From the NCBI GenBank assembly GCA_964649615.1, contig CAZYPW010000006.1, positions 12,635-76,634 on the forward strand: a stretch of 64,000 nt of DNA, read 5' to 3'. Under the pieces are notes generated by a model. The model was given only the letters and a program-made list of their open reading frames with translations, did not search any database and was not told the DNA's origin. Positions 2,399 through 38,603 of the stretch are shown in pieces. The position numbers and the translations under genes were made by a program. This DNA is from an uncultured Gammaproteobacteria bacterium (GTDB taxonomy: Bacteria > Patescibacteriota > Microgenomatia > Daviesbacterales > UBA10151). Position 1 is the stretch's first letter. Each line of letters opens with the position of its first letter.

Positions 2399-4296
2399 AG
2401 ATACTAATATTCTTATTTATATTTTTCTTGCTTCCCTCAAATGTTTTTGCCCAAAATGCACCTTGTGCAGCAGAAACTACCAAATGCGGGCAGCCTTCAT
2501 ATGCTAATTGTTCTTCTGTCCAATATGAAACTGATGGCAGGGCTTTTTATACCTGCACCCAATCAAATAACCCAAACTGTGCAGGGACTATATATTGTGC
2601 TTCTGAAAATAAATCAACTTACCAGCCTCCTGTAGCTGTTCCTGCTTCTGCTGTTTGTACACCCAACGCTTTTGATGCTTCCTTATGCAGAAGGTGTGCC
2701 TCAGATGGAAGCAGATGGGGTACCAACGGTTCTGATTTTGGCACTAATTATGGTTCAAAAGCGTGGTGCAGTTGTGCCAAGCAATATGATCCTTCTGTCT
2801 ATGGGCAATCATGTAATCAGCCACCAACTGGGGTAGGAACGACCAATCCGCCTTCAGAGCCAGTGGGAGTAGGAAAAACCACGCCTGTATCTGTCCCACC
2901 AATTACTGTTACCAAAATACAAATTAATGGGCAGGATTTAGATCTAAATGGCAGTTTAAAACTCACTCTGCCAGAAACAATAAAAGAATCTGATGTACAA
3001 AATAAAATTGATGTGACTTACTCAGACAATTCAACAAAATCCTTCTTTATTACCTTTCATTACACACCAAAAATTGATCCAGTTATAGAAGCAGAAAATC
3101 AAACAAAAGATGTAGGTGTATTAGTTTTAAAATATTTCCCATTGGATAGTAGCGGTGCAAATCTTAATTCAAATATTACCGGCATGAGCACCAGTTTGGC
3201 GGCTATTAAGCAATATGTTAATACCCTAACTTTGAAGTCCTTGAATGTCCTAACGGAGGCGAGTATCTACCATGGTTTCAAAAGCAAGTCAACCCCTGCA
3301 TTGAAATATAAACTGGTAGATACAAAGGAGTATCAATTACCCCTGCCTGTTTCGTCAGATAGAGTTCCCTGGAATACTGATAGCTTTAGGCCAGATTACA
3401 AAAAAATGTTAAATGATATAAATATCTGTGATTATGTTGAAAATAGAAATGTTAAACAAGTTTGGGTGTGGGGTTATCATACAAAGGTTATAGAACCAGC
3501 AGAGTCAAATATGTCTATGGGCAGAGATTCAAGCTCATTTTGGCCACAACAAACTTATGGAGATATTAGTAATAGTGAAAGAAGTGATGATTTACCGATT
3601 TGCCAAAAAACCTATGTACTTTATAACTATAATTATGAACGTGGGCTTGGCGAGGTTTTAGAAGACCACGGCCATCATATAGAAGCTGTTTTAAGTTATG
3701 TTAATTACGATCTTTTTTGGAATTACTTCGTTAGGCCTCATGGAACTCAAGACGGGGTGAATAATTGTGGATGGATGCATGCTCCTCCTAATGTAACAGA
3801 TGAAGATCAATATAACTGGACAAGTAAGTTTAGGGTTCAGTCTGCTTGCTCAGACTGGAAGCCGGACGGATCTGTATCAACCAAAAGCATCGACTGTACT
3901 ACTTGGGCGGGAGCAGACTGTACTAATGATATGGGGGCTAGTTTTAAGGTTTGGTGGATGCAGAATTTACCTGGAATGGATAATGGTTTAACTTATCAGG
4001 GAAGAAAGTTAAGGAACTGGTGGGTTTTTATTGGTGATTTTGATAATGCCATAGCTTCTGGAAAAGCCTTAACTGCTAAAACTCCAACTGAAGCAAGGAC
4101 ACTTTTTAGAACTCAATCAGCGCATACAGAAACCCAATATATCCCTCCTGCTTCCCTGCCGCATCCTCACGAACCGGTTGAGATACCTGAAGTACCCAGT
4201 GCACCTGAACCTTTAGAATTAATAGATTTTAACAGTGATGGGCAGATCAATGTTTTTGACCGGATTATATATGTTAGAAAACAGTTAGGGTTATGA
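2395..4296 (+). CDS. Large Cys-rich secreted protein with C-terminal dockerin-like repeat
   Basis: GTG start overlapping the upstream stop. Signal peptide, many Cys in the N-terminal 150 aa, C-terminal DFNSDGQINVFD Ca-loop motif. The passenger domain is unassigned. Confidence 0.5.
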   Translation: MKILIFLFIFFLLPSNVFAQNAPCAAETTKCGQPSYANCSSVQYETDGRAFYTCTQSNNPNCAGTIYCASENKSTYQPPVAVPASAVCTPNAFDASLCRRCASDGSRWGTNGSDFGTNYGSKAWCSCAKQYDPSVYGQSCNQPPTGVGTTNPPSEPVGVGKTTPVSVPPITVTKIQINGQDLDLNGSLKLTLPETIKESDVQNKIDVTYSDNSTKSFFITFHYTPKIDPVIEAENQTKDVGVLVLKYFPLDSSGANLNSNITGMSTSLAAIKQYVNTLTLKSLNVLTEASIYHGFKSKSTPALKYKLVDTKEYQLPLPVSSDRVPWNTDSFRPDYKKMLNDINICDYVENRNVKQVWVWGYHTKVIEPAESNMSMGRDSSSFWPQQTYGDISNSERSDDLPICQKTYVLYNYNYERGLGEVLEDHGHHIEAVLSYVNYDLFWNYFVRPHGTQDGVNNCGWMHAPPNVTDEDQYNWTSKFRVQSACSDWKPDGSVSTKSIDCTTWAGADCTNDMGASFKVWWMQNLPGMDNGLTYQGRKLRNWWVFIGDFDNAIASGKALTAKTPTEARTLFRTQSAHTETQYIPPASLPHPHEPVEIPEVPSAPEPLELIDFNSDGQINVFDRIIYVRKQLGL

Positions 4297-4580: not shown

Positions 4581-5504
4581 ATGGCTGCCCAACTATCCTC
4601 CTTAATTACTGATTTTTTAGAATACTTAGAATTAGAACGCAATGCTTCTCAACTGACTATTAAAAACTATAGCCATTATTTAAAGAGATTTTTACTCTTT
4701 GCAGGAGATATTACACCTTCAGAAATTGATTTAAGTTTGGTCAGAAAATATAGGCTGTATCTGGCCCGTTTTACTGATCCTCAAACACACAAAGGCTTAA
4801 AAAGAATTACCCAAAATTATTTTATGATTGCTCTAAGGGCATTTTTAAGGTATTTAGCCAGAGTTGATATTGATACCATATCTCCAGAGAAAGTAGAGCT
4901 TGGCGGGTCAGATCCCAGGCCGCTAAAAGTGTTAGATGAGGCTCATTTAAAATCTTTGCTAGAGGCTTCAGATACCACTAAAAAAGATGGAATCAGGGAT
5001 AGATGCATACTGGAGATGCTATTTTCCACAGGTTTGAGGGTTTCAGAGCTAGCTTCTTTAAATAGGGATACTATTAATTTAAATAGAAGAGAGTTTGGGA
5101 TAGTTGGTAAAGGTGGCAAAGAAAGAGTGGTTTTTATCTCTGGCTCCGCTGCAGGTTGGTTAGAAAAATATTTAAATGTCAGGAAAGACAGCTTTAAACC
5201 TTTATTTATCAGATTTCAAGGAAAGGTAGATCCTTCTAATAATGGTGAAGCTATGAGGCTAACACCAAGGTCTATAGAAAGAATTGTAGAAAAATATGTG
5301 AAAAAGTTAGGGCTTCCTATTAAAGCTACTCCCCATACCTTAAGGCACTCTTTTGCTACAGATTTATTAATCAATGGAGCAGATATCCGCTCTGTCCAGG
5401 AAATGCTGGGCCACTCCTCTATCCAAACCACCCAAATTTATACCCATGTCACCAATCAACACTTAAAAGACGTCCACAAAGCATTTCATTCAGGAAATAA
5501 ATGA
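4581..5504 (+). CDS. xerC: Tyrosine recombinase XerC/XerD family
   Basis: Phage-integrase catalytic motifs: HTLRHSFAT, LLINGADIRSVQEMLGHSSIQTTQIYTHV. Confidence 0.85.
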   Translation: MAAQLSSLITDFLEYLELERNASQLTIKNYSHYLKRFLLFAGDITPSEIDLSLVRKYRLYLARFTDPQTHKGLKRITQNYFMIALRAFLRYLARVDIDTISPEKVELGGSDPRPLKVLDEAHLKSLLEASDTTKKDGIRDRCILEMLFSTGLRVSELASLNRDTINLNRREFGIVGKGGKERVVFISGSAAGWLEKYLNVRKDSFKPLFIRFQGKVDPSNNGEAMRLTPRSIERIVEKYVKKLGLPIKATPHTLRHSFATDLLINGADIRSVQEMLGHSSIQTTQIYTHVTNQHLKDVHKAFHSGNK

Positions 5505-14028: not shown

Positions 14029-14487
14029 TTATCTACCTCTAGGCCTATTAATTCTGGCTGCAACAGCTTCATTTTTGAAATACTCATTTAAAGCGCCTGA
14101 AGGGTTTATAACTCTAGGAGACAATGGTTGTCCTTGATCATTTGTCTCAAAAATTATATGGCTACCGTTCAATATATAACCTCTAGTGGAGACAAATTGG
14201 AATCTTTCAGTAACAATTTGGGATTTTTTAGCAGCAAGCTCTAAATCAGGTATTTCATCTTCGGTGGCAGTAGGTACCATTTTAACTTCCCAGTATGGCG
14301 TCTCTTTGTTCGGAGTTAAAAGTGGGCTTTTACATTCGATAACATAATATATGCCTGTTCTAGGTTCCCCTTCCATATCTGGCGTATCATAACCTAAATG
14401 GAGTATTTTTGCTATGAATTCTTTGTTTATTGCTTGAGCAGCAGCATCTGCAGTGTCTTTACCATCAGCTTCATTAAATTTGCCCAT
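14029..14487 (-). CDS. Hypothetical protein
   Basis: 152-aa ORF with no recognisable motif. Paired with the next gene. Confidence 0.4.
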   Translation of the reverse strand: MGKFNEADGKDTADAAAQAINKEFIAKILHLGYDTPDMEGEPRTGIYYVIECKSPLLTPNKETPYWEVKMVPTATEDEIPDLELAAKKSQIVTERFQFVSTRGYILNGSHIIFETNDQGQPLSPRVINPSGALNEYFKNEAVAARINRPRGR

Positions 14488-14663: not shown

Positions 14664-15434
14664 TCATATTCCAAAAGTCAGACCTTGCTTAGGATGTCTA
14701 TCTCCTCCTAAAATAATTGTTTGCTGAATCTCAGCTAAAGTAGGCATATCTTGTTCCAAACCCTTAGGTTTATATCTTAGATATATATCATTGAAAACTA
14801 GAGTTTTAAAATCTGGATAACTTAATGGTAAGGGTAAAAAACGCCATTCTCCAAAGTTACGTCTATTTCCATCTTCTGGTTTTTGGAAACCTACAAAAAG
14901 GAGACGAGTATGTTCATCAAAAAGATCAGGATGCCCTGATCTATCAAGTCTGAGTCGACCCTGGACGCTGGCTAAGTCTGTACCCATCCCTAAAACAGTA
15001 CAAAGTCCTGCAATACGGTTACCATTTTCTCCATGTTGAATGATAAGAGCGTATGGAAAAGAAACAGGATTACCATCTGGATGAAGATTTTGATAAACAG
15101 CAGAAGTAGGAACAGGCGGAAGAACTGTTGCATTAGGATCCAGTTGTCCCTGCACCCAAGTTAAAGCTAAATCAGAATATACAGATCTTAGTAATTGTCG
15201 TACAAGTTGAACAGGATTTAAAGCGGGATTAAGGCTTTCTCGCATGCTTTGCCTATATACTCCTCTAAAGCCTCTGGTTCTTTTGTAGGCAGCAATCATA
15301 TCCCCTGCAGTTTCTTGTGTAGCAACAGCTCGTGCAAAAGCTCGAGTTTTCGGCGAGATTTCACCAGCCGAAATTATAGGTTGCACCATTCGGTAGGTTT
15401 GCTCTCTATGCTCTGGAGTTGTCGTTATTATCAT
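14664..15434 (-). CDS. Hypothetical protein (higher-GC, possibly acquired)
   Basis: 256-aa ORF. GC content is visibly above neighbours. No recognisable motif. Confidence 0.4.
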   Translation of the reverse strand: MIITTTPEHREQTYRMVQPIISAGEISPKTRAFARAVATQETAGDMIAAYKRTRGFRGVYRQSMRESLNPALNPVQLVRQLLRSVYSDLALTWVQGQLDPNATVLPPVPTSAVYQNLHPDGNPVSFPYALIIQHGENGNRIAGLCTVLGMGTDLASVQGRLRLDRSGHPDLFDEHTRLLFVGFQKPEDGNRRNFGEWRFLPLPLSYPDFKTLVFNDIYLRYKPKGLEQDMPTLAEIQQTIILGGDRHPKQGLTFGI

Positions 15435-15470: not shown

Positions 15471-16403
15471 CTATGGGGTTATTTTTAAGGCTGATTTGAT
15501 AATTTTATCTAAGAGTTGGGGAAATTCTAAGCCAAAAGCTTGAGCTGCTTTGGGCATTAAGCTTTGAGAGGTCATCCCTACCCCACAAGGAGGATTAACT
15601 TCTAACACAAATGGAGTGTTATTTAAAACAATCATATCTGTTCTGGAATATGGGTTAAGAGATAAAGTTTGGTGAAGTTTTAAAGCAATTTGCTGGGCTC
15701 TATTTTTAGTCTTTTCATCCAAAGATGGAGCTCCTACTATTTCTTTGCTTTCTCCACTATATTTATTTTTATAATCAAACCAGCCTTTATCTGGTGGAAT
15801 TATTTCTATAACAGGCAAAGCTTGATTGGAAAATACCCCTACAGTAATTTCTATTCCTTTAACATATCTTTCCACTAAAAAATAATCATCTAAGGAAAAA
15901 ATCTTTTTCACCAAAGGATTTTTTAAATCTTTTTCAGAAAGTAAAATCACTACTTCTTTAGATGAACCACCTCTGGCTGCTTTTAGCACACAAGGAAATC
16001 CAAACTTTTTAATATCCAGAGTATTTTTTACAACTTTCCACTCTGGCTTGGGGATTTCATTTTGGTCACAAAACTGATTAAACAGGATCTTATCAAAAGC
16101 TATTTCAGTAGATTTTGGGCCACAACCCACAAAAGGTTTATTTAATTTTTTCAGGAAAGTATAAAGAGTGCCATCCTCCCCTTCTTTACCATGAATCACA
16201 GGAAAGATTAGATCAAAATCTTGTGAGATTTTTTTAAGCTCAGAAAAGCCTTTTTTTAAATCAAAAAGCTTAACTTTATAAGCGGAGCTTACAGCTTGCT
16301 GATATCCCACCTCTTCCAGGCCCTTTTTAACATTTTCAGCAGAGATTAAAGAAATCTTTCTTTCAGAAGATGTTCCCCCAGTTATAACTAATATTTTTTT
16401 CAT
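15471..16403 (-). CDS. ddl: D-alanine--D-alanine ligase
   Basis: N-terminal MKKILVITGGTSSERKISL and an ATP-grasp C-terminal half. Confidence 0.85.
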   Translation of the reverse strand: MKKILVITGGTSSERKISLISAENVKKGLEEVGYQQAVSSAYKVKLFDLKKGFSELKKISQDFDLIFPVIHGKEGEDGTLYTFLKKLNKPFVGCGPKSTEIAFDKILFNQFCDQNEIPKPEWKVVKNTLDIKKFGFPCVLKAARGGSSKEVVILLSEKDLKNPLVKKIFSLDDYFLVERYVKGIEITVGVFSNQALPVIEIIPPDKGWFDYKNKYSGESKEIVGAPSLDEKTKNRAQQIALKLHQTLSLNPYSRTDMIVLNNTPFVLEVNPPCGVGMTSQSLMPKAAQAFGLEFPQLLDKIIKSALKITP

Positions 16404-17563
16404 ATAACTATTCTCTTTGTAGATTCTGCTAAATTAACTAGCAGTTCATAAGGAATGGTTTGGCAGATTTTAGCACAGTTTAAAATAGAATTTTTGCCCC
16501 TTGGATTATCGGAATAAACTATTACTTCTTGTCCAATATATGGTTTAGATACTTTGGTAATATCTATGGTGGTAATATTCATGCTGACTCTGCCTATGAT
16601 TGGACATTCAATACCATCAACAAAAACTATCCCTTTGTTAGATAACCTCAAATCAACTCCCTCATAGTAACCTAGTGGCAATATACCTACTGTCAGATTT
16701 CTTTTGGCAGTATAAAGACTCTCGTACCCTACCTTATCCCCTTTTTTTAGTTCTTTAATTTGAATAATCTTAGTTTTTAATTTTAAAACAGGTTTTAAAT
16801 CTACATTCCCACTTCGGATGTGGGAATTCGATATGCCATAGAGAGCAAGACCTACTCGGGCTATATTTACGTTGCAACCTCGAAGGTGGAATCGTAATAA
16901 TCCATCTGAGTTTTGGATATGAATATACTTTGGATTAAAACCAGCCTTCCTAACAATTTGTTGTACGTGCTTCAAATTGTTAATTTGCTTAAGATTCAAT
17001 CCATTCTTGGGATCATCTGCACAAGCAAAATGTGATATCAAACCTTCCACTTTTAAGTATTTTAGCCCTTTTAGTTCTTCTAAAAATAGTGGTAAATCTT
17101 TCATTTGAATGCCTTCTCTGCTCATACCAGTATCTACAAAAATATGAACACTACATTCTGGTTGATATTTACTTAAAACTTTAGCTGTTTTCAAATCATA
17201 TAAAGCAAAAGAAAAAGGCAGTTTTTTAACTTTAAAATTTTCAGGATTTGTATATCCCATTATTAAAATTTTAGTTTTAATCCTTGCTTTTAGTAATTCA
17301 TATGCTTCATATAAAGAATCAACACAAAAAAATGGTGCATTAACTTGGTCTAAAATTTTTGCTATCTCAACTATTCCATGCCCATATCCATTACTTTTTA
17401 TGACAGGGGCAACTTTAATTTTTTTAGTGCGCGAAGCGCGCGAGCTTTGCTCATTTAAAGAAGATAAATATTTGTAGTTATGAATTAAATTTGCTTTCGA
17501 CACCTCAATTAGATTTAAGGTTTGGTAATCTTTTTTAAATATTTTTAGAATTTTGCTTAACAT
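16400..17563 (-). CDS. alr: Alanine racemase
   Basis: PLP-lysine motif VIKSNGYGHG. Carries in-frame element insertions at 16806-16826, 16871-16890 and 17427-17447. Confidence 0.85.
   Translation of the reverse strand: MLSKILKIFKKDYQTLNLIEVSKANLIHNYKYLSSLNEQSSRASRTKKIKVAPVIKSNGYGHGIVEIAKILDQVNAPFFCVDSLYEAYELLKARIKTKILIMGYTNPENFKVKKLPFSFALYDLKTAKVLSKYQPECSVHIFVDTGMSREGIQMKDLPLFLEELKGLKYLKVEGLISHFACADDPKNGLNLKQINNLKHVQQIVRKAGFNPKYIHIQNSDGLLRFHLRGCNVNIARVGLALYGISNSHIRSGNVDLKPVLKLKTKIIQIKELKKGDKVGYESLYTAKRNLTVGILPLGYYEGVDLRLSNKGIVFVDGIECPIIGRVSMNITTIDITKVSKPYIGQEVIVYSDNPRGKNSILNCAKICQTIPYELLVNLAESTKRIVI
16806..16826. repeat. Family-1 palindrome
   Basis: In alr. Read as SHIRSGN. Confidence 0.9.
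16871..16890. repeat. Family-2 palindrome CAACCTCGAAGGTGG
   Basis: In alr. Read as FHLRGCN. Confidence 0.6.
17427..17447. repeat. Family-5-like GC hairpin GTGCGCGAAGCGCGCGAG
   Basis: In-frame in alr (SSRASRTKK). Confidence 0.6.
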
Positions 17564-17960
17564 TTTAGGAAAACTAATTATACATTATCCAATTTCTGAT
17601 TATTTCATTGGTTTTTATGGTACAGACATGTTTTATGTTTATGGAAGCTTTGGTTTAGTTGGGTTGATTGGTTTATGGCTGCGGTCACACAAAAGGCCTC
17701 TTTTTGTGATTAGCGGAGCTCTCTCCTCTTCCGTATTATTTTTTATCATCACTAATTTTGGAGTTTGGGCACCGCCAAATAATTGGTATCCCCATAATTT
17801 AAATGGCTTAATTAAAAGCTATACAATGGCATTGCCCTTTTTCAAAAATAGTCTAATTGGAGATGTTGGCTACACTATTATTTTATTTGGAGGATATGAA
17901 CTAACTAAAATATTTTCCAAGAAATACACCCCCCAAAAACTTTTTCAATTGCTCTACTGA
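17553..17960 (+). CDS. Membrane protein, hypothetical
   Basis: Four hydrophobic segments. Confidence 0.35.
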   Translation: MLNILGKLIIHYPISDYFIGFYGTDMFYVYGSFGLVGLIGLWLRSHKRPLFVISGALSSSVLFFIITNFGVWAPPNNWYPHNLNGLIKSYTMALPFFKNSLIGDVGYTIILFGGYELTKIFSKKYTPQKLFQLLY

Positions 17961-17997
17961 TTGGATTTCCCCATATTGCACAGGTATAATTTAGCAT

Positions 17998-20352
17998 ATG
18001 ACTTTTGAGGATTTAAGAAAAAAACATCCTGAGTTTATATATCATGGGTTTGAAAAAAAATTTGAAGATCAAACATTAAAAATCTATTTTGATTTTGAGA
18101 TATCTCCAAACATTAAATTCAGACCGGAAATTATTCTCCCAAACGTGTTCCCACATCGGATGTGGGAAGGCAAATTGGATAATTTGGTTTTTAATTTAGG
18201 AATGGTTGAGCTGATAAGTTACTGGAAAGCAACTTGTTCTCCAAAAATTACTATCAAAGCAGGTTTTTTAGATCAGGAACAAATTAAATTTTGGAAAAAA
18301 CTTTTAATAAAAGGCCTGGGAGAATTTTTTTATACAAACAGAATAGATTTTACCCAGGATGGGCTAGTTAATTTTGAAGTACGTTCCCACATGTCAAGTG
18401 GGAAGCCATTTGAGGGGATTTTGAAAGATAGAGATTTAATACTTGTTGGTGGAGGTAAGGATTCTGTTGTTACTTTGGATTCTATTTCCAAATCAGGTAA
18501 AGAATTTAACTGTCTGCTTTTAAATCCAACAGATGCAGCTATTAAAATTGCAGAAATCGGTGGGTGTAAAAATCCAATAATAGTGAAAAGAACAATAGAT
18601 CCTAAACTTTTGGAATTAAATGAGCAGGGTTATTTAAACGGCCATACTCCTTTTTCTGCATATCTTGCGTTTTTATCAATGCTATCTTCTGTAATTTATG
18701 ATTATAAAAATGTTGTTGTTTCTAATGAGTCCTCATCTAATGAAGGAAATGTGATTTGGATGGGTAAAGAAATAAATCATCAGTATTCTAAATCAGAGGA
18801 ATTTGAAAAAGACTTTAAAGAATATAGTCAAAAATATCTAGCTCCTGTTAATTACTATAGTTATTTAAGAGAATTAAATGAATTGGAAATTGCCAGAATT
18901 TTTTCCAACTTAGAAAAATACCACAAGGTTTTTAGAAGTTGTAACAAGGGTTCAAAACAAGGGAGTTGGTGTGGCAAGTGCTCAAAATGCCTATTCACTA
19001 ATTTAATTCTTTATCCGTTTTTAGGAAAAAAAATAGAAAGAATTTTTGGCAAAGATTTACTTGATGATGAAACTTTATCTCCAGTTATGGAAGAGCTTTT
19101 GCATTTGCCGGGTAAATTTAAGCCGTTTGAATGTGTTGGCACAAAAGAGGAAATTGAATATGCAATGTTGCTGGGCATTTTAAGAAGCAAGAGAAAATTA
19201 TTAGAAAGATATAAAGATCAGATATCAATCCTAATTTTGGGAATGGGCAGAGAAGGAATAGCAACAAGTAATTTTTTGCAAAAAAATAACATAAATTTCT
19301 CAACCTCTGATCAAAAAGAGGGGAAAAATTATCTTGATAAGTTAAAAGATTATGACGTGATTATTAAATCTCCCGGCATCCCCTATTTGATAGAAATTAA
19401 AAAAGCCAAAGAAAATGGAAAAATCATTTCATCTAGCACGCAAATTTTTTTTGATCTTTGCCTTGGGAAAATAATCGGCGTCACCGGTACCAAGGGCAAA
19501 AGCACCACCACATCCATGATTTATGAAGTCTTAAAATCAGGAGGCTTAGATGTTTACCTGGTGGGGAATATTGGTCAGCCAGCGCTGGATTTATTAGATA
19601 ATCTTAAGAAAGATTCTATAGTAGTTTATGAATTATCTTCATTCCAGCTAGCTGATCTTAAGAAAAGTCCTCAGATTGCAGTGATAACCAATATTTATCC
19701 GGATCATTTGGACTGGCATGGCAGTTTTGAAGATTATAAAAAAGCCAAAGAAAATATCAGTAGGTTTCAGACAAAAAATGATATTCTTATCTCCAATAAA
19801 AGAGGTGCTGAAGCTGCAAAAATTATTGGAAAATTATTTAAAATAAGTGAAGAAAAAATAAACAAAGCAATTAAGAATTTTAAGCCACTCCCACATCGGT
19901 TAGAATTTGTTGCAGAAAAAAATGGAATTAAATTTTATAATGATTCCCTGGCAACTAATCCCCATGCCACCATTTTTGGGTTAAAGACTTTAGGAGAAAA
20001 AGTAGAGACTTTAATAGCCGGAGGGCTTGACCGCGGGGTTGATTATTCCATTTTAGGACCGGTAATTGCCAATTCAAAAATAAAAAATCTAATTTTATTT
20101 CCTGATACAGGTAAAAAAATAGGAGAGGTCGTCAGTTATCAGCCCGCTTCGCTGCGAGGCGAGTCATCAGCTATCAGACAATTTCATGTTAATAATATGG
20201 AAGAGGCTGTTAAAATTGCTTATGAAAATACTTCCCCTGGAAAAATTTGCCTGATGTCCCCTGCCTCAGCCAGTTTTAATATGTTCAAAGACTATGAAGA
20301 TAGAGGAAATCAGTTTAGGAGTTGGGTTGCCAGATTAGGAAGAAGACACTAG
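17998..20352 (+). CDS. murD: Fusion protein: N-terminal PP-loop-like ATP-pyrophosphatase-type domain plus C-terminal MurD-type Mur ligase
   Basis: The C-terminal 400 aa have GVTGTKGKSTTTSMI (P-loop), NIGQPALDLL, DHLDWHGSFEDY. The N-terminal 400 aa have LVGGGKDSVVTLD (SGGxDS-like) and WCGKCSKC. Two in-frame palindromic elements at 18148-18168 and 18384-18404. Confidence 0.7.
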   Translation: MTFEDLRKKHPEFIYHGFEKKFEDQTLKIYFDFEISPNIKFRPEIILPNVFPHRMWEGKLDNLVFNLGMVELISYWKATCSPKITIKAGFLDQEQIKFWKKLLIKGLGEFFYTNRIDFTQDGLVNFEVRSHMSSGKPFEGILKDRDLILVGGGKDSVVTLDSISKSGKEFNCLLLNPTDAAIKIAEIGGCKNPIIVKRTIDPKLLELNEQGYLNGHTPFSAYLAFLSMLSSVIYDYKNVVVSNESSSNEGNVIWMGKEINHQYSKSEEFEKDFKEYSQKYLAPVNYYSYLRELNELEIARIFSNLEKYHKVFRSCNKGSKQGSWCGKCSKCLFTNLILYPFLGKKIERIFGKDLLDDETLSPVMEELLHLPGKFKPFECVGTKEEIEYAMLLGILRSKRKLLERYKDQISILILGMGREGIATSNFLQKNNINFSTSDQKEGKNYLDKLKDYDVIIKSPGIPYLIEIKKAKENGKIISSSTQIFFDLCLGKIIGVTGTKGKSTTTSMIYEVLKSGGLDVYLVGNIGQPALDLLDNLKKDSIVVYELSSFQLADLKKSPQIAVITNIYPDHLDWHGSFEDYKKAKENISRFQTKNDILISNKRGAEAAKIIGKLFKISEEKINKAIKNFKPLPHRLEFVAEKNGIKFYNDSLATNPHATIFGLKTLGEKVETLIAGGLDRGVDYSILGPVIANSKIKNLILFPDTGKKIGEVVSYQPASLRGESSAIRQFHVNNMEEAVKIAYENTSPGKICLMSPASASFNMFKDYEDRGNQFRSWVARLGRRH
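18148..18168. repeat. Family-1 palindrome TTCCCACATCGGATGTGGGAA
   Basis: In the PP-loop::MurD fusion. Read as FPHRMWE. Confidence 0.9.
18384..18404. repeat. Family-1 palindrome, variant B TTCCCACATGTCAAGTGGGAA
   Basis: Same gene. Read as SHMSSGK. Confidence 0.9.
20143..20166. repeat. Family-5-like CCCGCTTCGCTGCGAGGCGAG
   Basis: In-frame in the MurD part (PASLRGES). Shares CCGCTTCGC and GAGGCGAG with the 7553 copy. Confidence 0.6.
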
Positions 20353-21684
20353 CTTTCTGGGAAGCTTATCTATATCTCCTGCTCCCATAAAAAATACCAC
20401 ATCTCCATTTTTAACTTCTGCTTTTACCTCATTTAAGATTTGATTAATTGGTACCATTTTTACGCTATTGCGCACTTTTGGTACCACTTCACTATTTATA
20501 CTTTCCACAAGCTGTTGGCTGTTTACCAAACCTGTATCTACTTCTCTGCTGGGATAAATATCTGTAATTATGATTTTATCTACAGGAAGTTCCTTAAATA
20601 CTTTGACAAAGTCATCAAAAAGGGCTTTAGTTCTTGAAAACATGTGAGGTTCATAAATAAGAATTATTCTGTTATTAGGAAATTTTTGTCTGGCAGCTTC
20701 CATGGTAACTTTTATTTCTGTTGGGTGATGACCAAAATCAGAATATACTTTTGCATTATTATAATCCCCTAAATATTCAAACCTCCTGCCAACTCCAGAG
20801 TAGTTTTGCAGGCTTTGTCTAATAGTTTGTGGATCAATTTCTAGAAGTAGACCAACCTGCATAGCTGCTTGAGCATTTAACTTATTAAATTCTCCAGGGA
20901 TTTGCATTGGAAAATGCAGCTCATTCCTAGAATAATCTAAATATTGGACAAAATCATCATGATCGGAATGTTTTTGTCTAGGAGTTTTCATTACATGTTT
21001 AACTACTTCAGCTACATTTGAGTCAGATAAATTTGCCACAATGGTTTGTTTGCTTTGCAAAAGAAATTTTTCAAAGCTTTCTTTATAAGATTCAAAATCC
21101 TTAAAATATTCCGGATGGTCCATCTCTATATTTGTAACAACTGTAATATCCGGTTTAAGATGCAAAAAATTATCATTAAACTCATCTGCTTCAATGGCAA
21201 AGTACCCACGGCCGTTAGTAGTTTGTCGCTGGATTCTATAGTTTGTGCCCCACTTTGGGTGTATTGCTCCAAGTAAAACCGTTGGGTCTAAATTAGCATC
21301 TTCCAGCATTTGGGCAATCATGGCTGTAGTAGTTGTTTTGCCATGTGTTCCGCAAACAGCAATTACAAACTTATCATTAGTTAAATATTCACCTACAAAC
21401 TGTTGCCAAGTTATTACAGGAATTTTTTTTTCTTTGGCTGCTAGAAGTTCTGAATTATTTGGATCCAGTGAAAAAATTGCCGGTGTAACTGCCAATATAT
21501 CTACCTTCCCACTTCCGATGTGGGAAGCTGAATGGCCTTTTTCTAACTTTACACTTCCGATGTGTAACGTAAACTTGTTATTGGGTTCTAAATCACAACC
21601 AGTTATTTCATAACCTTGAGCTTGAGCGATAGCAGCAGCAGCAGACGCTCCAGACCCACCAATTCCTAAAAAATGAATTTTCAT
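20335..21684 (-). CDS. murC: UDP-N-acetylmuramate--L-alanine ligase
   Basis: Start MKIHFLGIGGSGASAAA at 21684 (the 78-aa upstream extension in the ORF track is rejected). Mur ligase GTHGKTTTTAM. In-frame element at 21506-21526 plus a degenerate copy at 21551-21569. Confidence 0.85.
   Translation of the reverse strand: MKIHFLGIGGSGASAAAAIAQAQGYEITGCDLEPNNKFTLHIGSVKLEKGHSASHIGSGKVDILAVTPAIFSLDPNNSELLAAKEKKIPVITWQQFVGEYLTNDKFVIAVCGTHGKTTTTAMIAQMLEDANLDPTVLLGAIHPKWGTNYRIQRQTTNGRGYFAIEADEFNDNFLHLKPDITVVTNIEMDHPEYFKDFESYKESFEKFLLQSKQTIVANLSDSNVAEVVKHVMKTPRQKHSDHDDFVQYLDYSRNELHFPMQIPGEFNKLNAQAAMQVGLLLEIDPQTIRQSLQNYSGVGRRFEYLGDYNNAKVYSDFGHHPTEIKVTMEAARQKFPNNRIILIYEPHMFSRTKALFDDFVKVFKELPVDKIIITDIYPSREVDTGLVNSQQLVESINSEVVPKVRNSVKMVPINQILNEVKAEVKNGDVVFFMGAGDIDKLPRKLVSSS
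21506..21526. repeat. Family-1 palindrome (with degenerate second copy at 21551-21569)
   Basis: In murC. Read as SHIGSGK, and the degenerate copy as LHIGSVK. Confidence 0.85.
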
Positions 21685-25142: not shown

Positions 25143-26849
25143 ATGTTTCAAGCTCCTGCCCAAAATACAATTGAGGACATCCTTTTTAAAGAAGGCCTGC
25201 TGTCTAAAGAACAACTGGCAGCTATCAAATTAGAAAGTATTAACTTGGGTCAACCTATTGATAAGTTAATCCTGCAGCACAATTTAGCTCCCATAGACAG
25301 AATTATCCAGGCTAAAGCCCAGTTGTTGAATGTCCCTTTTATGAAGCTGGAAGGAAAAGCTATCTCTGCTGAGGTTTTAAACCTGATTCCTGAGGCTGCA
25401 GCCAGGCGTTATACCATCATCCCTTTTGAGAAACAGGGTGATGAGCTTTGGGTAGCCATGGCAGATCCCTTAGATATTCAAATAATCCAGTTTATAGAAA
25501 AAAGATCTGGCAAAAGAGTTAAACCCTATTTAGCTTTGCCTGAAGATATTTTAAAAGCCATCTCTGACCAATATGCCCAAAATTTAACCTCTGAAGTTAC
25601 TTCTGCTTTAAAGGAAGTTCAATCAGTAAAACCTGAGGAAGAAATCTCAACTGGCCCTCAAATAATCAGAGAAGCTCCAGTTACTAACATTGTTAACCAA
25701 CTTTTGGAATATGCTATTAAAACCCGCTCATCTGATATTCACATCGAGCCCCAGGAAGATAGGACCAGGGTTAGATATAGGATTGATGGGATTTTGCAGG
25801 AAAAAATCCTTCTTCCCAGGGGAGTTCATGATGCTTTAGTTTCTAGAATAAAAATCTTGTCTGTTTTAAAGATAGATGAAAGAAGATTGCCCCAGGATGG
25901 AAGGTTTACTTTTACCTTGGGTGAAAATGAGGTAGATCTGAGGATTTCCACAGTTCCTACTGTTTTTGGAGAAAAAGTAGTGATGAGGCTATTGCCTAAA
26001 TCCACCAATGCCCCTACTCTTTTAGAATTAGGCTTAAGAGGCAGTTCTTTAAAAGCTTTGGAGACTCAACTCTTGCGCCCTCATGGCATCATTTTAGTTT
26101 GTGGTCCTACAGGTTCTGGAAAAACTACTACTTTGTATTCAGTTTTAACTAAAATTTCCACCACCAAAGTTAATGTAGTGACTGTGGAGGACCCTGTTGA
26201 GTACCAGATTCCAGGTGTTAATCAGGTTCAAGTGAATCCTACAGTTGGCCTGACTTTTGCCTCAGCCCTGCGTTCATTTTTAAGGCAGGATCCAAATATT
26301 ATTATGGTAGGAGAAATCAGAGATACAGAAACAGCTGATTTGGCAATACAAGCTGCCTTAACTGGCCACCAGGTTTTTTCTACTGTTCATACTAATTCTG
26401 CCTCAGGTGCTCCTCCTAGGCTTTTGGATATGGGGGTGGAGCCATTTTTATTAACCTCCTCTTTAAATGCAGTGGTTGGGCAAAGAGTAGTCAGAAAAAT
26501 TTGCCCCCACTGTAAAATGGAATTTCCAGCCCCACCTGAGGTGGTGGAAAATATTAAATCAGTTTTGGGGAATTTTTTGCCAAAATCATTAGGCCTAAAT
26601 TTGAAGCTTTTTAAAGGGCAAGGTTGTGCCCAATGTGTTAAAACAGGTTATTTGGGCAGGGTGGGGATTTTTGAAGTGTTGGTGGTGACAGATTCTTTGG
26701 CCAAATTGATTTTAGAACATGCTTCCAGCACTGCCATTGAGCAGCTGTCAGTTTCCCAAGGCATGGTGACTATGAAACAGGATGGCTATTTGAAGGCATT
26801 GGAAGGTGTGACTACTATGGAGGAGGTGTTGCGCGTAGCGCAAGATTAA
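25143..26849 (+). CDS. pilB: Type IV pilus assembly ATPase PilB/GspE
   Basis: N-terminal T2SSE_N-like domain, Walker A VCGPTGSGKTTT, and a CxxC...CxxC tetracysteine. Confidence 0.9.
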   Translation: MFQAPAQNTIEDILFKEGLLSKEQLAAIKLESINLGQPIDKLILQHNLAPIDRIIQAKAQLLNVPFMKLEGKAISAEVLNLIPEAAARRYTIIPFEKQGDELWVAMADPLDIQIIQFIEKRSGKRVKPYLALPEDILKAISDQYAQNLTSEVTSALKEVQSVKPEEEISTGPQIIREAPVTNIVNQLLEYAIKTRSSDIHIEPQEDRTRVRYRIDGILQEKILLPRGVHDALVSRIKILSVLKIDERRLPQDGRFTFTLGENEVDLRISTVPTVFGEKVVMRLLPKSTNAPTLLELGLRGSSLKALETQLLRPHGIILVCGPTGSGKTTTLYSVLTKISTTKVNVVTVEDPVEYQIPGVNQVQVNPTVGLTFASALRSFLRQDPNIIMVGEIRDTETADLAIQAALTGHQVFSTVHTNSASGAPPRLLDMGVEPFLLTSSLNAVVGQRVVRKICPHCKMEFPAPPEVVENIKSVLGNFLPKSLGLNLKLFKGQGCAQCVKTGYLGRVGIFEVLVVTDSLAKLILEHASSTAIEQLSVSQGMVTMKQDGYLKALEGVTTMEEVLRVAQD

Positions 26850-26947
26850 ATATTAAAAATCAAAATGCAAAATGACAATGTAGAATTTAAAATTTTAAAT
26901 TTTAATCTGTCATTTTTATTTTTTAGTTCTAATCTTTACATTTAATA

Positions 26948-28000
26948 ATGAACATACAACAATTATTAGATCTGACAATTTCGCGGAATGCTTCTGATTT
27001 ACATTTATCTGTAGGTTTTCCTCCCCTGTTGCGCATTCATGGTGAGTTAATACCTGTGGCTGGAGAAAGTGAGGTTACTCTTGAGGGAATCAGCAGTTTA
27101 ATCTTCCCTATGCTCAACCAAGTCCAAAAAAATATTTTTGACCAATCATATGAGCTGGATTTTTCCTTTGAATTTGAGGGAAAAGGCAGATTTAGGGTAA
27201 ATATTTATAAGCAAAAAAATTACCCTGCAGCATCTTTGCGGTTAATTCCTCTTTCAATTCCTCCTTTAGAAGCATCAGGATTGCCTCAAAACTTATTTAA
27301 AATAGCTGAGTTAAAACAAGGATTAATTTTAGTAACAGGCCCCACAGGGCATGGAAAATCCACCACCCTGGCTTCATTTATCAATAAAATAAACCAGACC
27401 AGAGCAGTGCATATAATTACCATTGAGGATCCTATTGAGTATGTCTATCCTAAGGCCAAGTCTTTAATTGACCAAAGGGAGATGTATAGAGATACCAAAT
27501 CCTGGAATAATGCGCTAAGAGCTGCTCTAAGGGAGGATCCAGATGTAGTTTTAGTAGGTGAGATGAGAGATTTTGAAACTATTGCCTCAGCCATGACTAT
27601 TGCAGAAACTGGGCATTTGGTTTTTGCCACCCTCCATACTAATTCTACAGCCCAATCCATTGATAGGATTGTGGATGTTTTTCCTGATATTCAACAAGCC
27701 CAGATAAAATTGCAGCTGGCAGCCACCCTGGAGGCCATTATTTCCATAAGGCTGATCCCAACTATTGAGCCAGGCAGGACTTTAACCTCAGAAGTGCTCC
27801 TAGCCACTCCTGCTGTGAGAAATATTATTAGGGAAGGCAAATCTCATTTAATTGATAACATCATAGAAACTTCAGCAGAATACGGCATGCAGATTTTGGA
27901 AAAATCTTTAGCAGATTTGGTAAAAAATGGCAAAATCACCTCGGATGTAGCTTTAAGCTATGCTCTAAGGCCAGAATTTTTGAATAAACTTCTAAAATAA
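26948..28000 (+). CDS. pilT: Twitching motility ATPase PilT
   Basis: VTGPTGHGKSTTLAS Walker A and the AIRNLIREGK PilT motif. Confidence 0.9.
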   Translation: MNIQQLLDLTISRNASDLHLSVGFPPLLRIHGELIPVAGESEVTLEGISSLIFPMLNQVQKNIFDQSYELDFSFEFEGKGRFRVNIYKQKNYPAASLRLIPLSIPPLEASGLPQNLFKIAELKQGLILVTGPTGHGKSTTLASFINKINQTRAVHIITIEDPIEYVYPKAKSLIDQREMYRDTKSWNNALRAALREDPDVVLVGEMRDFETIASAMTIAETGHLVFATLHTNSTAQSIDRIVDVFPDIQQAQIKLQLAATLEAIISIRLIPTIEPGRTLTSEVLLATPAVRNIIREGKSHLIDNIIETSAEYGMQILEKSLADLVKNGKITSDVALSYALRPEFLNKLLK

Positions 28001-28022
28001 ATGGCAGAAAGGATATATAAAA

Positions 28023-29225
28023 ATGGCGGATTTTGTCTATAAAGCAAAAGATAGGCAAGGCACATATTCAGAAGGTGTTATCCAATCTCCAGATAGCCAT
28101 TCTGCTGCTTCAATTTTACGGAAAAAGGGATTAATTGTCATATCACTTATTAATAAGGGTGATTCTTCCTTTAAATTTTTAGAAATCTTATTAAATAGAG
28201 TTTCTGCCAACACCATAGTGATTATGACCAGGCAGCTGGCTACTATGGTTTCATCTGGTTTGGTTTTATCTGAAGCCATAGATATTTTGCAGGAACAGCA
28301 AACTAATAAAACGCTGCAAAAAGCCCTGGAGGAAATATCAGAGGATATTAAAGGCGGGTTAACACTAGCCCAGGCTTTATCTAAATATCCCCATATCTTC
28401 CCCAAATTATATGTTAATTTAGTTAAGTCAGGCGAGGCTTCTGGAAAGTTAGACCAGGTTTTGGTGCAGATGGCTGATTCTTTGGAAAAGGATAGGGAAT
28501 TTAGAGCCCGCGTCCGCGGGGCCATGATATATCCCATGGTGGTTATAGCCATGATGCTGGGAGTAATTGTGATTATGATGGTTTTTGTCATCCCCCGTTT
28601 GGTGGGTTTATATGAACAATCCACAATTGAGCTCCCTCTTCCTACCAAAATTCTGATTCTTACTTCTAATCTTTTTATCAACTTTTGGTGGTTGGGGATC
28701 ATAATTTTGATAGGTTCGGCTATTGCTTTAAACCGTTGGAACAAAACTCCTCAAGGGGCTTATTTTATAGGTAAATTCCTCTTAAAGACGCCCTTAGTTG
28801 GTGTTATTATTTCTAATGTGACTTTAACTAATTTCTGCAGAACTTTTGGGCTTTTAACTTCTGCTGGAATACCTCTGCTGGAATCTATTGCTATTGTGTC
28901 AGATTTAACAGATAATCCAGTTTATAGGAAGGCGCTAAAAGATGCATATTCCGGAGTGGAGCGGGGCCTGCCTTTTTCTTCACTTTTAACTCCTACTGTA
29001 TTTCCCAAAATTGTCCCCCAAATGATTAGAGTGGGTGAAGAAACAGGAAAAGTAGATGAGATTTTTTTCAAACTAGCAGAATACTTTGAATCAGAATCTG
29101 ACCATTTAGTCAAAAACCTAACAGTGGCCATAGAACCGATTATTTTAATTATTTTAGGTATTGGAGTAGCTTTTTTGGTGCTATCCATAATTCTGCCAAT
29201 CTATAAGCTCACTACGTCATTCTGA
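28023..29225 (+). CDS. pilC: Type IV pilus platform protein PilC/GspF
   Basis: Two T2SSF repeats and three TM segments. Confidence 0.85.
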   Translation: MADFVYKAKDRQGTYSEGVIQSPDSHSAASILRKKGLIVISLINKGDSSFKFLEILLNRVSANTIVIMTRQLATMVSSGLVLSEAIDILQEQQTNKTLQKALEEISEDIKGGLTLAQALSKYPHIFPKLYVNLVKSGEASGKLDQVLVQMADSLEKDREFRARVRGAMIYPMVVIAMMLGVIVIMMVFVIPRLVGLYEQSTIELPLPTKILILTSNLFINFWWLGIIILIGSAIALNRWNKTPQGAYFIGKFLLKTPLVGVIISNVTLTNFCRTFGLLTSAGIPLLESIAIVSDLTDNPVYRKALKDAYSGVERGLPFSSLLTPTVFPKIVPQMIRVGEETGKVDEIFFKLAEYFESESDHLVKNLTVAIEPIILIILGIGVAFLVLSIILPIYKLTTSF

Positions 29226-29252
29226 CTTCGTGAGCTTGCGAGTACTGCGTTT

Positions 29253-29277
29253 GCTCTTTTGATCGTTGTCAAAGAGC
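29253..29277 (+). terminator. Hairpin after pilC
   Basis: GCTCTTTTGATCGTTGTCAAAGAGC stem-loop 28 nt after the pilC stop. Confidence 0.35.
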
Positions 29278-29396
29278 AACTTCGTACTTTTAAATTAACT
29301 ACCTCTTTCTAAGAGGTACTTGACTTACTATCTGCCTTTATGAATAGAATAGATTAGATCGGAAAATAGATAAATCCTGAAGGGGGGTGAATAATT

Positions 29397-29936
29397 TTGA
29401 TAAAATCTGCTCACAGAGGGTTCACCTTGGTGGAACTTTTGGTTGTTATTGCAATTATTGCCATTTTGGCAGCTGTGGTGGTTTTAATTATTAACCCGCT
29501 TGAATTAACAAGAAGAGGCAGGGATGCAGCAAGGCTGACAGATCTTGCTAATCTTCAAAATGCTATTAATGTAGCAGTTCAAGAATCCACAGGTTCATCT
29601 GCTGTAGCTGTTTTGTGTGTAGGATCTATTGACTATCCATGTAATGGGTCATCTCACACAGGCACAAGAGCTGCTGATGGAACAGGATGGGCTAAGGTTA
29701 ATTTGTCTTCATCACAAAGCGTTTCAGTGCCTACCTTACCACAAGATTCAACTAACTCAACTACTCTTCATTACACATACTGTGCTGATGATGATGCTTG
29801 GGAAATTGATACTGTGTTGGAGTCTGACCAACAAAAAGGTAAGATGTTGACTGATGGCGGGAATGAGGATGATAAATTTGAAGTAGGTTCCAACTTGCAG
29901 CTGATAGCTGCTTCAGGTGGAAGCTGCACATACTAA
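29397..29936 (+). CDS. pilA: Type IV pilin (probable major pilin)
   Basis: Prepilin leader and GFTLVELLVVIAIIAILAA N-methylation/cleavage motif. C-terminal Cys pair. Confidence 0.8.
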   Translation: MIKSAHRGFTLVELLVVIAIIAILAAVVVLIINPLELTRRGRDAARLTDLANLQNAINVAVQESTGSSAVAVLCVGSIDYPCNGSSHTGTRAADGTGWAKVNLSSSQSVSVPTLPQDSTNSTTLHYTYCADDDAWEIDTVLESDQQKGKMLTDGGNEDDKFEVGSNLQLIAASGGSCTY

Positions 29937-29949
29937 AGGCCAGGTTTGA

Positions 29950-30882
29950 ATGATTGTACTTTTAGGTTTTAGTTTGGGAATAGTTTTAGGTAGCTTTGTT
30001 AAGGCGCTAGCTGATAGAAGCCTATCTAATAAATCTTTTTGGGGAAGGTCGTACTGTTTAAATTGTAAGAAGAAATTACAATGGTACGACCTTTTTCCAA
30101 TACTTTCTTATCTAACTCTACAAGGCAGATGCAGATATTGTGGCAAAAAAATTGGGTTAGAGTATTTAGTGGTAGAAATTAGCATGGGAATATTAGTAGG
30201 ATTTCTGTTTTGGCAAAATCTGATTAATTTTCAATTTCTAATTTCTGCCTCCGAAGGAGGGGTGAATTATTTTCATTCAATTATCAATTATCAATTATCA
30301 ATATTTATCATTGATCTTCTGATTAAAATCTTTTTTATAAGTGTTTTAGTTGCTTTGGTATTGACAGATTTAAAGAAAATGTTAATCCCTGATCGGATAA
30401 TACTTCCAGCAATTACCCTAGGCTTTATCATGGCTGGATTGTTAGCCGCTTATAAGATTGGGTATTTATATTATCATCTATTAAATCATCCAGTAGGCAA
30501 ATATTTGCTTTTCCCCCATTCTGATTATTTTGGGCAACATGCCTTAGAATTATTGCATCCGTTTTTAACCGGTGTTTTTTCAGCTTTATTAATAGGTGGA
30601 TTTTTCTATCTTCTTATTATTATTACTAAAGGCAAAGGAATGGGTGGAGGGGATGTTAAACTGGGAGCATTCATAGGGCTAATGTTAGGTTTCCCCAACT
30701 CTTTGGTGGCTCTGATTTTGGCCTTTTTTTCTGGGGCAATAGTTTCTATACTACTGCTTGCATCAGGCAGGAAAAAAATTGGCCAGGTTATTCCCTTTGG
30801 GCCATTCTTAGTAATAGGGGCTTTAATTGCCCTTTTTTGGGGAGATAAAATATTTAACTGGTATATAAAGCTTGGGTCTTGA
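29950..30882 (+). CDS. pilD: Prepilin peptidase (A24 family)
   Basis: N-terminal CLNC...CRYC zinc motif. Eight TM segments. GGGDVKL catalytic Asp region. Confidence 0.85.
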   Translation: MIVLLGFSLGIVLGSFVKALADRSLSNKSFWGRSYCLNCKKKLQWYDLFPILSYLTLQGRCRYCGKKIGLEYLVVEISMGILVGFLFWQNLINFQFLISASEGGVNYFHSIINYQLSIFIIDLLIKIFFISVLVALVLTDLKKMLIPDRIILPAITLGFIMAGLLAAYKIGYLYYHLLNHPVGKYLLFPHSDYFGQHALELLHPFLTGVFSALLIGGFFYLLIIITKGKGMGGGDVKLGAFIGLMLGFPNSLVALILAFFSGAIVSILLLASGRKKIGQVIPFGPFLVIGALIALFWGDKIFNWYIKLGS

Positions 30883-38452: not shown

Positions 38453-38603
38453 TCTCAAAACTCAAATCGCAAAACATCAATACTGCCTTCGGCAGAACAA
38501 AACTACAACTAAAAGCTTAAATCTTTAAAGTTTTAATATTTAAGATTTAGATTTGCCATTTGACATTTAACATTTGAGATCTGACAATGAATATACTGTC
38601 CAT

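Follow-up and report, generated by a model that had tools for sequence, protein, structure and literature searches.

A 64,000-nucleotide stretch of contig CAZYPW010000006.1 (assembly GCA_964649615.1; positions 12,635 to 76,634 of the forward strand), referred to here as the window, encodes a 784-residue protein in which an epimerase of the MurL type appears to be joined to a ligase of the MurD family. The gene, a fused murL-murD(2) located at 17998–20352 on the forward strand, is assigned with a probability of roughly 0.77 to a single enzyme with both activities of the alternative MurD2/MurL route to peptidoglycan D-Glu. An initial annotation of this DNA had tentatively read the gene as a possible MurL epimerase fused to a MurD ligase, and that reading is borne out by the homology of the N-terminal half to MurL, by a MurD2-like pocket in the C-terminal half, and by the linkage of murL to murD. 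The evidence supports a fused, trimmed member of a known pathway, one that is already recognisable in current Pfam.

The fused gene is a single unbroken open reading frame (ORF) that begins with an ATG at 17998 and ends with a stop codon at 20350–20352 (+), with 784 codons read without interruption. An identical 784-residue protein (P0001) is encoded on the 91.7-kb NCBI contig JACOXE010000006.1 (GCA_016176385.1) of a 'Candidatus Daviesbacteria bacterium', and the same ORF with the same neighbours recurs in independent assemblies of two SRA runs (Logan). Furthermore, assemblies from NCBI, JGI, ENA and Logan together contain over 100 protein clusters with the fused MurL and MurD architecture. 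Because independent assemblies reproduce the ORF and more than 100 clusters share its architecture, the fusion is real, and an assembly artefact, a chimera or a frameshift is ruled out. A pseudogene is likewise ruled out, as the ORF is intact and both halves are similarly conserved in the clade to which the protein belongs (64–75% identity for the MurL half and 70–81% for the MurD half). Across these sequences the trimmed ligase domain is not decaying.

An AlphaFold2 (AF2) model of the full-length protein is confident throughout, with a predicted local distance difference test score (pLDDT) of 92.9 and a predicted template-modelling score (pTM) of 0.87. Most fusions are 880–920 residues long; the window protein has only 784 because about 60 residues have been lost from the central domain of the ligase and because the 45–60-residue C-terminal tail of stand-alone MurLs is missing. 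The fused protein is named only as a 'D-glutamate ligase' in NCBI records, since it is a MurD family member at the sequence level (TIGR01087), while JGI calls one relative the epimerase.

The MurL domain

The MurL domain comprises residues 1–405 (17998–19212, +). It had been guessed that residues 1–400 form a MurL-type epimerase, and profile searches return MurL as by far the best match to this region. The NCBIfam model NF041275 (UDP-N-acetyl-alpha-D-muramoyl-L-alanyl-L-glutamate epimerase MurL) aligns with residues 55–409 over model positions 52–412 of 447 (361 positions; E = 7e-72, 242 bits), while unrelated PP-loop families (QueC, Dph6) score only E = 0.02–0.04 on the N-terminal half. Precomputed matches to the newer Pfam families MurL_N (PF26299) and MurL_epimerase_C (PF26298) extend across the N-terminal region; an older Pfam set gives only sub-threshold matches to DUF6395 and QueC. 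The QueC match (PF06508; 13.9–16.2 bits against a cutoff of 22, E = 0.04) does not reach the gathering score and is restricted to the region of a Cys cluster, where residues 284–332 align with QueC positions 152–200.

These weak QueC and DUF6395 matches, together with the rank of QueC as the top structural neighbour described below, point toward a QueC-like or tRNA-modifying PP-loop enzyme that was joined to the ligase by chance or by mis-assembly. Such an identity is extremely improbable, however, as the QueC score lies under its cutoff and many orders of magnitude from that of MurL, the fused ORF is recovered in three independent assemblies, and the architecture and synteny are conserved across phyla.

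The relationship to MurL has also been probed by direct comparison with Xanthomonas. The annotated murL of X. sacchari (Prokaryotic Genome Annotation Pipeline; located on a 509-kb replicon by tblastn of a plasmid collection) encodes a protein that is homologous to the window domain over nearly its whole length (36% identity, BLASTP E = 2e-64), and it is directly followed by an overlapping 'murD'. Among 59 diverse relatives of the window protein 37 residues are invariant, and 32 of the 37 are identical in X. sacchari MurL; conversely, all 81 of the family positions that are at least 93% conserved are kept in the window protein. Every motif residue of GGGKDS, NGHxP, NHQxSK, SCN, WCxxCxKC and KPFECVG is retained in X. 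sacchari MurL, with the forms NGH(T/I)P and NHQ(Y/W)SK describing the two proteins together. As in Xanthomonas, the window MurL is coupled to a ligase of the MurD type, with murL preceding murD. In contrast to it, the window MurL is covalently fused to this ligase and comes from Patescibacteria, outside the published distribution, with a function that is predicted from homology.

Both motifs on which the initial annotation had relied are located in this domain, LVGGGKDSVVTLD at residues 148–160 and CGKCSKC at residues 325–331. The PP-loop-like motif GGGKDS (residues 151–156; 18448–18465, +) is the predicted binding site for the alpha- and beta-phosphates of ATP and is invariant in the 59 aligned members and in X. 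sacchari MurL. The motifs NGHTP (residues 214–218) and NHQYSK (residues 260–265), which lie within 18637–18792 (+), are likewise composed of invariant columns kept in Xanthomonas MurL, suggesting a role in the active site. The side chains of Cys315, Cys325, Cys328 and Cys331 (SCN...WCGKCSKC; 18940–18990, +) are all invariant and would form a QueC-like metal site, probably for Zn2+. Finally, Lys375 and Cys379 of the KPFECVG motif (residues 375–381; 19120–19140, +) are identical throughout the family and in X. sacchari MurL. Together with His216, His261 and Lys265, which are also invariant, these two side chains are candidates for the acid/base chemistry of the epimerase.

A PDB sequence search with the MurL domain, which would have identified a solved MurL structure, returned nothing significant. 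The AF2 model of this domain, calculated from the 59-sequence alignment, is highly confident (pLDDT 95.7, pTM 0.94), and its top fold neighbours in the PDB are all PP-loop ATP pyrophosphatases. QueC (3BL5, E = 2e-6) is the first of these neighbours and is joined by QatC (9Y02), Cap9 (9NTO), TtuA, argininosuccinate synthetase (ArgG), MnmA and NMN/NAD synthetase, in agreement with the earlier description of the N-terminal half as PP-loop-like. The solved folds of QueC, QatC and Cap9 are the closest to the model and share with it both the PP-loop and a C-terminal four-Cys cluster. Carboxylate adenylation with release of AMP, which is characteristic of the QueC-like enzymes, is predicted for the MurL domain as well. 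In contrast to these enzymes, the MurL domain contains an extra N-terminal subdomain of 140 residues, has a sequence similarity to them that falls under the Pfam threshold, and would act on a UDP-muramyl dipeptide in an epimerization rather than in the formation of a nitrile or an amide.

The mechanism of MurL has been described as unclear in reviews, which state that the enzyme 'lacks known conserved domains' (PMC8788868, PMC5808125). It is established that MurL uses one ATP, releases AMP and acts only in the L-to-D direction (PMC8788868, PMC5808125), and the predicted identity of the MurL domain as a QueC-like PP-loop ATP pyrophosphatase fits this AMP-forming reaction. Nowhere in the searchable literature is MurL assigned to the QueC-like PP-loop enzymes, and no MurL structure is reported there. 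The confident PP-loop/QueC-like model offers a concrete structural frame for the MurL mechanism, and the trimmed 784-residue fusion would be an attractive minimal construct for structural work.

The ligase domain and its glutamate pocket

The MurD-family ligase domain (residues 406–784; 19213–20349, +) follows the MurL domain with essentially no linker, and matches the Pfam Mur ligase M and C domains. The nearest PDB entries, by both sequence and fold, are MurD structures, with a template-modelling (TM) score of about 0.75 to closed complexes of the E. coli enzyme. The catalytic side chains of E. coli MurD (Lys115, Asn138, Glu157, His183 and the carbamylated Lys198) are all present as Lys501, Asn524, Glu545, His570 and Lys584. 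The Mur ligase ATP P-loop is found as GVTGTKGKSTT at residues 494–504 (19477–19509, +), aligned with Gly114-Lys115-Ser116-Thr117 of E. coli MurD. The window contains no second MurD over its 64 kb; the only other Mur ligase is murC.

The determinants of glutamate stereospecificity have been identified in Xanthomonas oryzae MurD2, in which Glu197, Arg358, Pro433 and Phe435 replace Asp182, Lys348, Ala414 and Leu416 of E. coli MurD (PMC8788868). The E197D/R358K variant of MurD2 is fully switched to a D-Glu ligase, and the K319T variant of E. coli MurD accepts L-Glu (PMC8788868). The corresponding positions of the window ligase were examined in an alignment of E. coli MurD, X. sacchari MurD2, 113 fused proteins and 73 MurDs encoded beside murL, and alongside four aligned D-Glu MurDs from the PDB (S. 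agalactiae, T. maritima, A. baumannii and E. coli). Glu206, Arg367, Pro443 and Phe445 of X. sacchari MurD2 match the published residues, and because they keep a constant offset of 9–10 from them, the pocket alignment is considered valid.

One difference is observed at Lys319 of E. coli MurD, which is replaced by Leu651 in the window ligase (19948–19950, +; NDSKATN becomes NDSLATN). This Lys is present in all four of the PDB D-Glu MurDs and in none of the 186 MurL-linked MurDs, where the residue is Leu, Ile or Gln (Ile in X. sacchari MurD2). At Lys348, equivalent to the published L-Glu determinant Arg358 of MurD2, the window ligase carries Arg679 (20032–20034, +). An Arg is likewise found in X. 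sacchari MurD2 and in 185 of the 186 MurL-linked MurDs, but this residue is not exclusive to MurD2, as S. agalactiae MurD also has Arg where the T. maritima, A. baumannii and E. coli enzymes have Lys. In the SPASASF segment (residues 754–760; 20257–20277, +), the side chains of Ala758, Ser759 and Phe760 are equivalent to Ala414, Ser415 and Leu416 of E. coli MurD and to Pro433, Ser and Phe435 of MurD2. The Leu416 position is Phe in X. sacchari MurD2 and Phe or Tyr in nearly all MurL-linked MurDs, and is Trp in S. agalactiae, Phe in T. maritima and A. baumannii, and Leu in E. coli.

The fourth position does not conform to this pattern. Asp569-His570 (19702–19707, +) aligns with Asp182-His183 of E. 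coli MurD, and this Asp is the state seen in D-Glu MurDs (Asp in T. maritima, A. baumannii and E. coli; Thr in S. agalactiae). The residue is Glu in X. sacchari MurD2 and in 157 of the 186 MurL-linked MurDs, with Asp in the other 29. The Asp is a derived minority state, found in 26 of the 113 fused proteins and 3 of the 73 adjacent MurDs, and occurs mainly in the clade of the window protein itself, which in a rough neighbour-joining tree is monophyletic and comprises about 25 fused clusters. Inspection of the substrate pocket, as had been recommended in the initial annotation, consequently gives a divided answer, with Leu at Lys319, Arg at Lys348 and Phe at Leu416 resembling MurD2, and Asp at the Glu197 equivalent departing from it.

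Overall, the window ligase shares with Xanthomonas MurD2 the Mur-ligase fold, the catalytic residues, Arg at Arg358, Phe at Phe435, Leu or Ile at E. coli Lys319 and the coupling to MurL; it differs in the Asp for Glu197, an Ala for Pro433, the deletion of about 60 residues in the central domain and an identity of 27%. It shares with canonical MurD the family and fold, a TIGR01087 score over the cutoff, the Asp-His pair at 182–183 and the name given in public records, and differs in the Leu for Lys319, the fusion to MurL and the loss of both a small beta-sheet and the GxHNxxN segment. The earlier description of the C-terminal half as a canonical MurD is therefore not upheld, given the missing central-domain residues and the MurD2-type substitutions. 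The plain MurD label used by NCBI was rejected on the basis of the Lys319-to-Leu replacement and the obligate linkage to MurL. The loss of Lys319, a signature derived here, offers a simple sequence marker for putative L-Glu-type MurDs.

Several findings weigh against assignment of the window protein as a MurD2/MurL enzyme. For the MurL half, the match to NF041275 does not reach the equivalog cutoff (242 vs 700 bits). This model was built on, and its cutoff tuned to, the Xanthomonadales, and by its score the window domain is a distant orthologue or a subfamily rather than an equivalog of the Xanthomonadales type. The ligase half passes the canonical murD model TIGR01087 (325 bits against a cutoff of 212), and is 27.2% identical to Xanthomonas MurD2 and 27.4% identical to E. 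coli MurD. The Glu197 that characterizes MurD2 is replaced by Asp569, and the single substitution E197D is sufficient to alter the stereospecificity of MurD2 (PMC8788868). The ligase in the clade of the window protein may, by its pocket residues, accept D-Glu or both isomers. Relaxed specificity of the Asp569 ligase would do no harm, given that the L-product is the only one on which MurL acts.

The source of D-Glu in this organism bears on the same question. No MurI-like ORF was found in the 64-kb window or among the ORFs of 80 murL loci (1.4 Mb) using phmmer --max with E. coli MurI as the query. In the case of the window, the absence of murI or a D-amino-acid transaminase covers 64 kb of a genome of about 1 Mb and says little genome-wide. 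A 2024 study by Penalver and co-workers on glutamate racemase in a bacterium of the candidate phyla radiation (CPR) is said to state in its abstract that no more than one racemase, for either Ala or Glu, occurs in a given CPR genome. Were this the case, murI would be missing from a genome bearing alr, as this one does; this is a lead rather than evidence.

These findings raise the alternative that the ligase is an ordinary D-Glu MurD, supplied by a racemase or with scavenged D-Glu, and that MurL has an auxiliary role, for instance in the rescue of mis-made L-Glu product, or in another adenylation of the muropeptide such as an amidation. PP-loop enzymes, including QueC and the NAD and asparagine synthetases, also carry out amidations, and both the Asp at the Glu197/Asp182 position and the TIGR01087 score are as expected for a D-Glu enzyme. 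This alternative is nonetheless unlikely, as the Lys319 common to the four D-Glu MurDs of known structure is Leu in the window ligase and is absent from every MurL-linked MurD including that of Xanthomonas, the active-site motifs of MurL are the same as those of the Xanthomonas epimerase, and the near-universal coupling of murL and murD argues for consecutive steps.

The central domain of the ligase presents a separate difficulty. At a clade-specific deletion site (19789–19815, +), about 60 residues (approximately 222–283 of E. coli MurD) have been lost, including a GxHNxxN motif kept by E. coli and most relatives, and only 151 of the 200 positions of the Mur_ligase_M model are matched. From the MurD structure literature, we take the GxHNxxN segment to contact the adenine of ATP. 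Loss of this segment, and a view of the genome limited to about 64 kb, leave room for the suggestion that the deletion inactivated the ligase, so that the protein serves only as MurL and a separate MurD2 is encoded elsewhere in the genome. This is very unlikely, since Lys501, Asn524, Glu545, His570, Lys584 and the P-loop are intact, the trimmed domain is conserved at least as well as the MurL half across about 25 clade members, and no second MurD occurs within the window. In addition, the AF2 model remains confident at the deletion site and superimposes on closed MurD structures with the TM score given above.

Proposed route, distribution and fusion history

For the bifunctional MurD2/MurL enzyme, homology suggests a route with two ATP-dependent steps. 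First, the C-terminal ligase would add L-Glu, rather than D-Glu, onto UDP-MurNAc-L-Ala, with conversion of ATP to ADP and Pi. Next, as homology and the predicted fold suggest, the MurL half would adenylate the alpha-carboxylate of the terminal L-Glu, with release of AMP from ATP. Inversion at the now acidic C-alpha would then be followed by hydrolysis of the adenylate; the reaction is one-way, from L to D. This sequence of adenylation, epimerization and hydrolysis is the hypothesis of the Dairi group (PMC8788868). Fusion would fix the two activities in a 1:1 stoichiometry, and the L-Glu intermediate may be passed directly between the active sites. The expected outcome is D-Glu in the cell wall without a pool of free D-Glu and, probably, without a glutamate racemase.

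The distribution of MurL was examined by searching exhaustively with this domain in HMMER, which gave 2,518 cluster representatives at E <= 1e-3 and 1,153 at E <= 1e-30 (clusters counted at 50% identity). Stand-alone MurLs of about 450 residues make up about 70% of the best 150 matches. When one genome was scanned for each GTDB species, at least 598 species genomes contained a MurL relative. The best 80 of these at least 598 include, within Patescibacteria, Microgenomates, Gottesman-, Roizman-, Curtiss-, Beckwith-, Nealson- and Kerfeldbacteria, Paceibacterota, Saccharibacteria and the cultured Minisyncoccus archaeiphilus; beyond Patescibacteria, the same 80 include Bacteroidales, Lachnospiraceae, Oscillospiraceae, Erysipelotrichaceae, Acidobacteria and Rokubacteria. 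The published distribution of MurL is a large underestimate. The searchable literature contains no description of a MurL-MurD fusion, of a distribution in CPR, Bacteroidales or Clostridia, or of the Lys319 signature, and matches to 'MurL' other than PMC8788868 and PMC5808125 are misprints of murI or unrelated words.

Linkage of the two genes was evaluated in the best 80 murL loci, 72 of which contain a high-scoring murD. This murD is a separate gene on the same strand downstream of murL in 70 of the 72 loci and is fused in the other 2. The commonest distance from the murL stop to the murD start is -4 nucleotides (ATGA), and 57 of the 69 distances that could be measured lie between -31 and +57 nucleotides. 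The same gene order and overlap are seen in Xanthomonas. The usual form of MurL is accordingly one half of an overlapping murL-murD operon, from which a single fused gene arose repeatedly. The fusion most likely originated by loss of a stop codon in such a translationally coupled operon.

Fusions in the reverse order, with MurD at the N-terminus and MurL at the C-terminus, are also found (P0085, P0088, P0102, P0110, P0120, P0131 and P0144; 791–932 residues). The pockets of P0085 and P0120 contain Ala or Ile at the Lys319 equivalent, Arg at the Lys348 position and Phe or Tyr at the Leu416 position. Judged by domain order, MurL and MurD have been fused independently in both orientations. In a rough neighbour-joining tree of 329 MurL domains, parsimony requires 53 changes between fused and unfused states, a number inflated by tree error and gene-calling errors; a single fusion event cannot be reconciled with this parsimony count.

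At five loci (L005, L016, L018, L027 and L034), one of which lies in the complete Nealsonbacteria genome CP179889.1, murL and a MurD2-type ligase are 0.4–3.4 kb apart with other genes between them, and these separated ligases still carry the Glu / Ile-or-Leu / Arg signature. MurL-like 'hypothetical proteins' with 28–31% identity over about 80–86% of the domain are also encoded on the Pseudonocardia plasmids NZ_CP010991.1 (70675–71691), NZ_CP052772.1 and NZ_CP011869.1. A MurL homologue carried on a plasmid may have another peptide as its substrate, for instance one in the biosynthesis of a natural product.

Together, these results bear on how the MurL/MurD2 route is viewed. The MurD2/MurL pathway was introduced in 2017 as an oddity of Xanthomonas and a handful of further genera, and this restricted occurrence prompted its proposal as a target for narrow-spectrum antibiotics. 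The MurL family occurs frequently in Patescibacteria, Bacteroidales and Clostridia, with gut and rumen taxa among them, and the 'narrow-spectrum' premise needs revisiting. The annotation 'D-glutamate ligase' probably names the wrong stereoisomer and leaves out half of the protein. Reconstructions that score CPR genomes as having no D-Glu supply may miss the MurL/MurD2 route.

A broader proposal, given somewhat less than even odds, is that this route is the main or only source of cell wall D-Glu in much of Patescibacteria (CPR) and in many Bacteroidales and Clostridia. The Daviesbacteria protein would then be a minimal, self-contained machine with two active sites, in which the pocket with Asp569, Arg679 and Leu651 may admit scavenged D-Glu as well as L-Glu of the cell, the one-way MurL domain correcting the latter. 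If true, a MurL route in these groups would explain the murI 'gaps' in reconstructions of the peptidoglycan pathway.

Gene neighbourhood and flanking sequence

The fused gene is accompanied by other genes of cell wall synthesis. The alanine racemase gene alr (16400–17563, −; Pfam Ala_racemase_N and Ala_racemase_C) is its divergent neighbour and overlaps by 4 nucleotides with ddl, the D-Ala-D-Ala ligase gene (15471–16403, −; Dala_Dala_lig_N and Dala_Dala_lig_C). On the other side lies the convergent murC (20335–21684, −; Mur_ligase, Mur_ligase_M and Mur_ligase_C), the 3' end of which overlaps that of the fused gene (+) by 18 nucleotides (20335–20352). The fused gene shares its locus with alr, ddl and murC, which brings the early ligases together with both steps of D-amino-acid supply. 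The murC product has 449 residues as called, and the mechanical ORF is longer, with 527 residues from a TTG.

Between alr and the fused gene is a gene for a small membrane protein of the DUF6580 family (17553–17960, +; E = 5e-32), the start of which overlaps the alr start region by 11 nucleotides on the opposite strand. The DUF6580 profile is matched only at positions 57–156 of 162, and the true start may differ. Two ORFs of 152 and 256 residues without a Pfam match (14029–14487, − and 14664–15434, −) lie between gyrA and ddl and retain their position beside ddl-alr in L085 and L086, two independent assemblies.

A scan for promoters and terminators over 17400–20500 found no excess of sites (15, against 12.7 ± 3.2 in shuffled sequence). 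A perfect TATAAT ends 7 nucleotides upstream of the ATG of the fused gene (within 17961–18000), with no Shine-Dalgarno-like sequence between them and a poor upstream hexamer. The spacing of the TATAAT hints at a leaderless or near-leaderless transcript of the fused gene. The G+C content dips to 0.32 over 16001–20000, which includes alr and the fused gene, compared with 0.36–0.40 in the flanking sequence; similar dips at 46–52 kb and 62–64 kb indicate that this feature is not unique to the locus.

Elsewhere in the window, type IV pilus genes are found at 25143–30882 and 38574–39638, encoding two T2SSE ATPases (one with MshEN), T2SSF, an N_methyl pilin, a prepilin peptidase A24 and PilM. Such machinery is characteristic of Patescibacteria that live as episymbionts. 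Near the start of the window are genes for a Dockerin type I protein (32–961, +) and a tyrosine recombinase/integrase (4581–5504, +), and between these two genes, at 1005–4296, lie several ORFs without a Pfam match.

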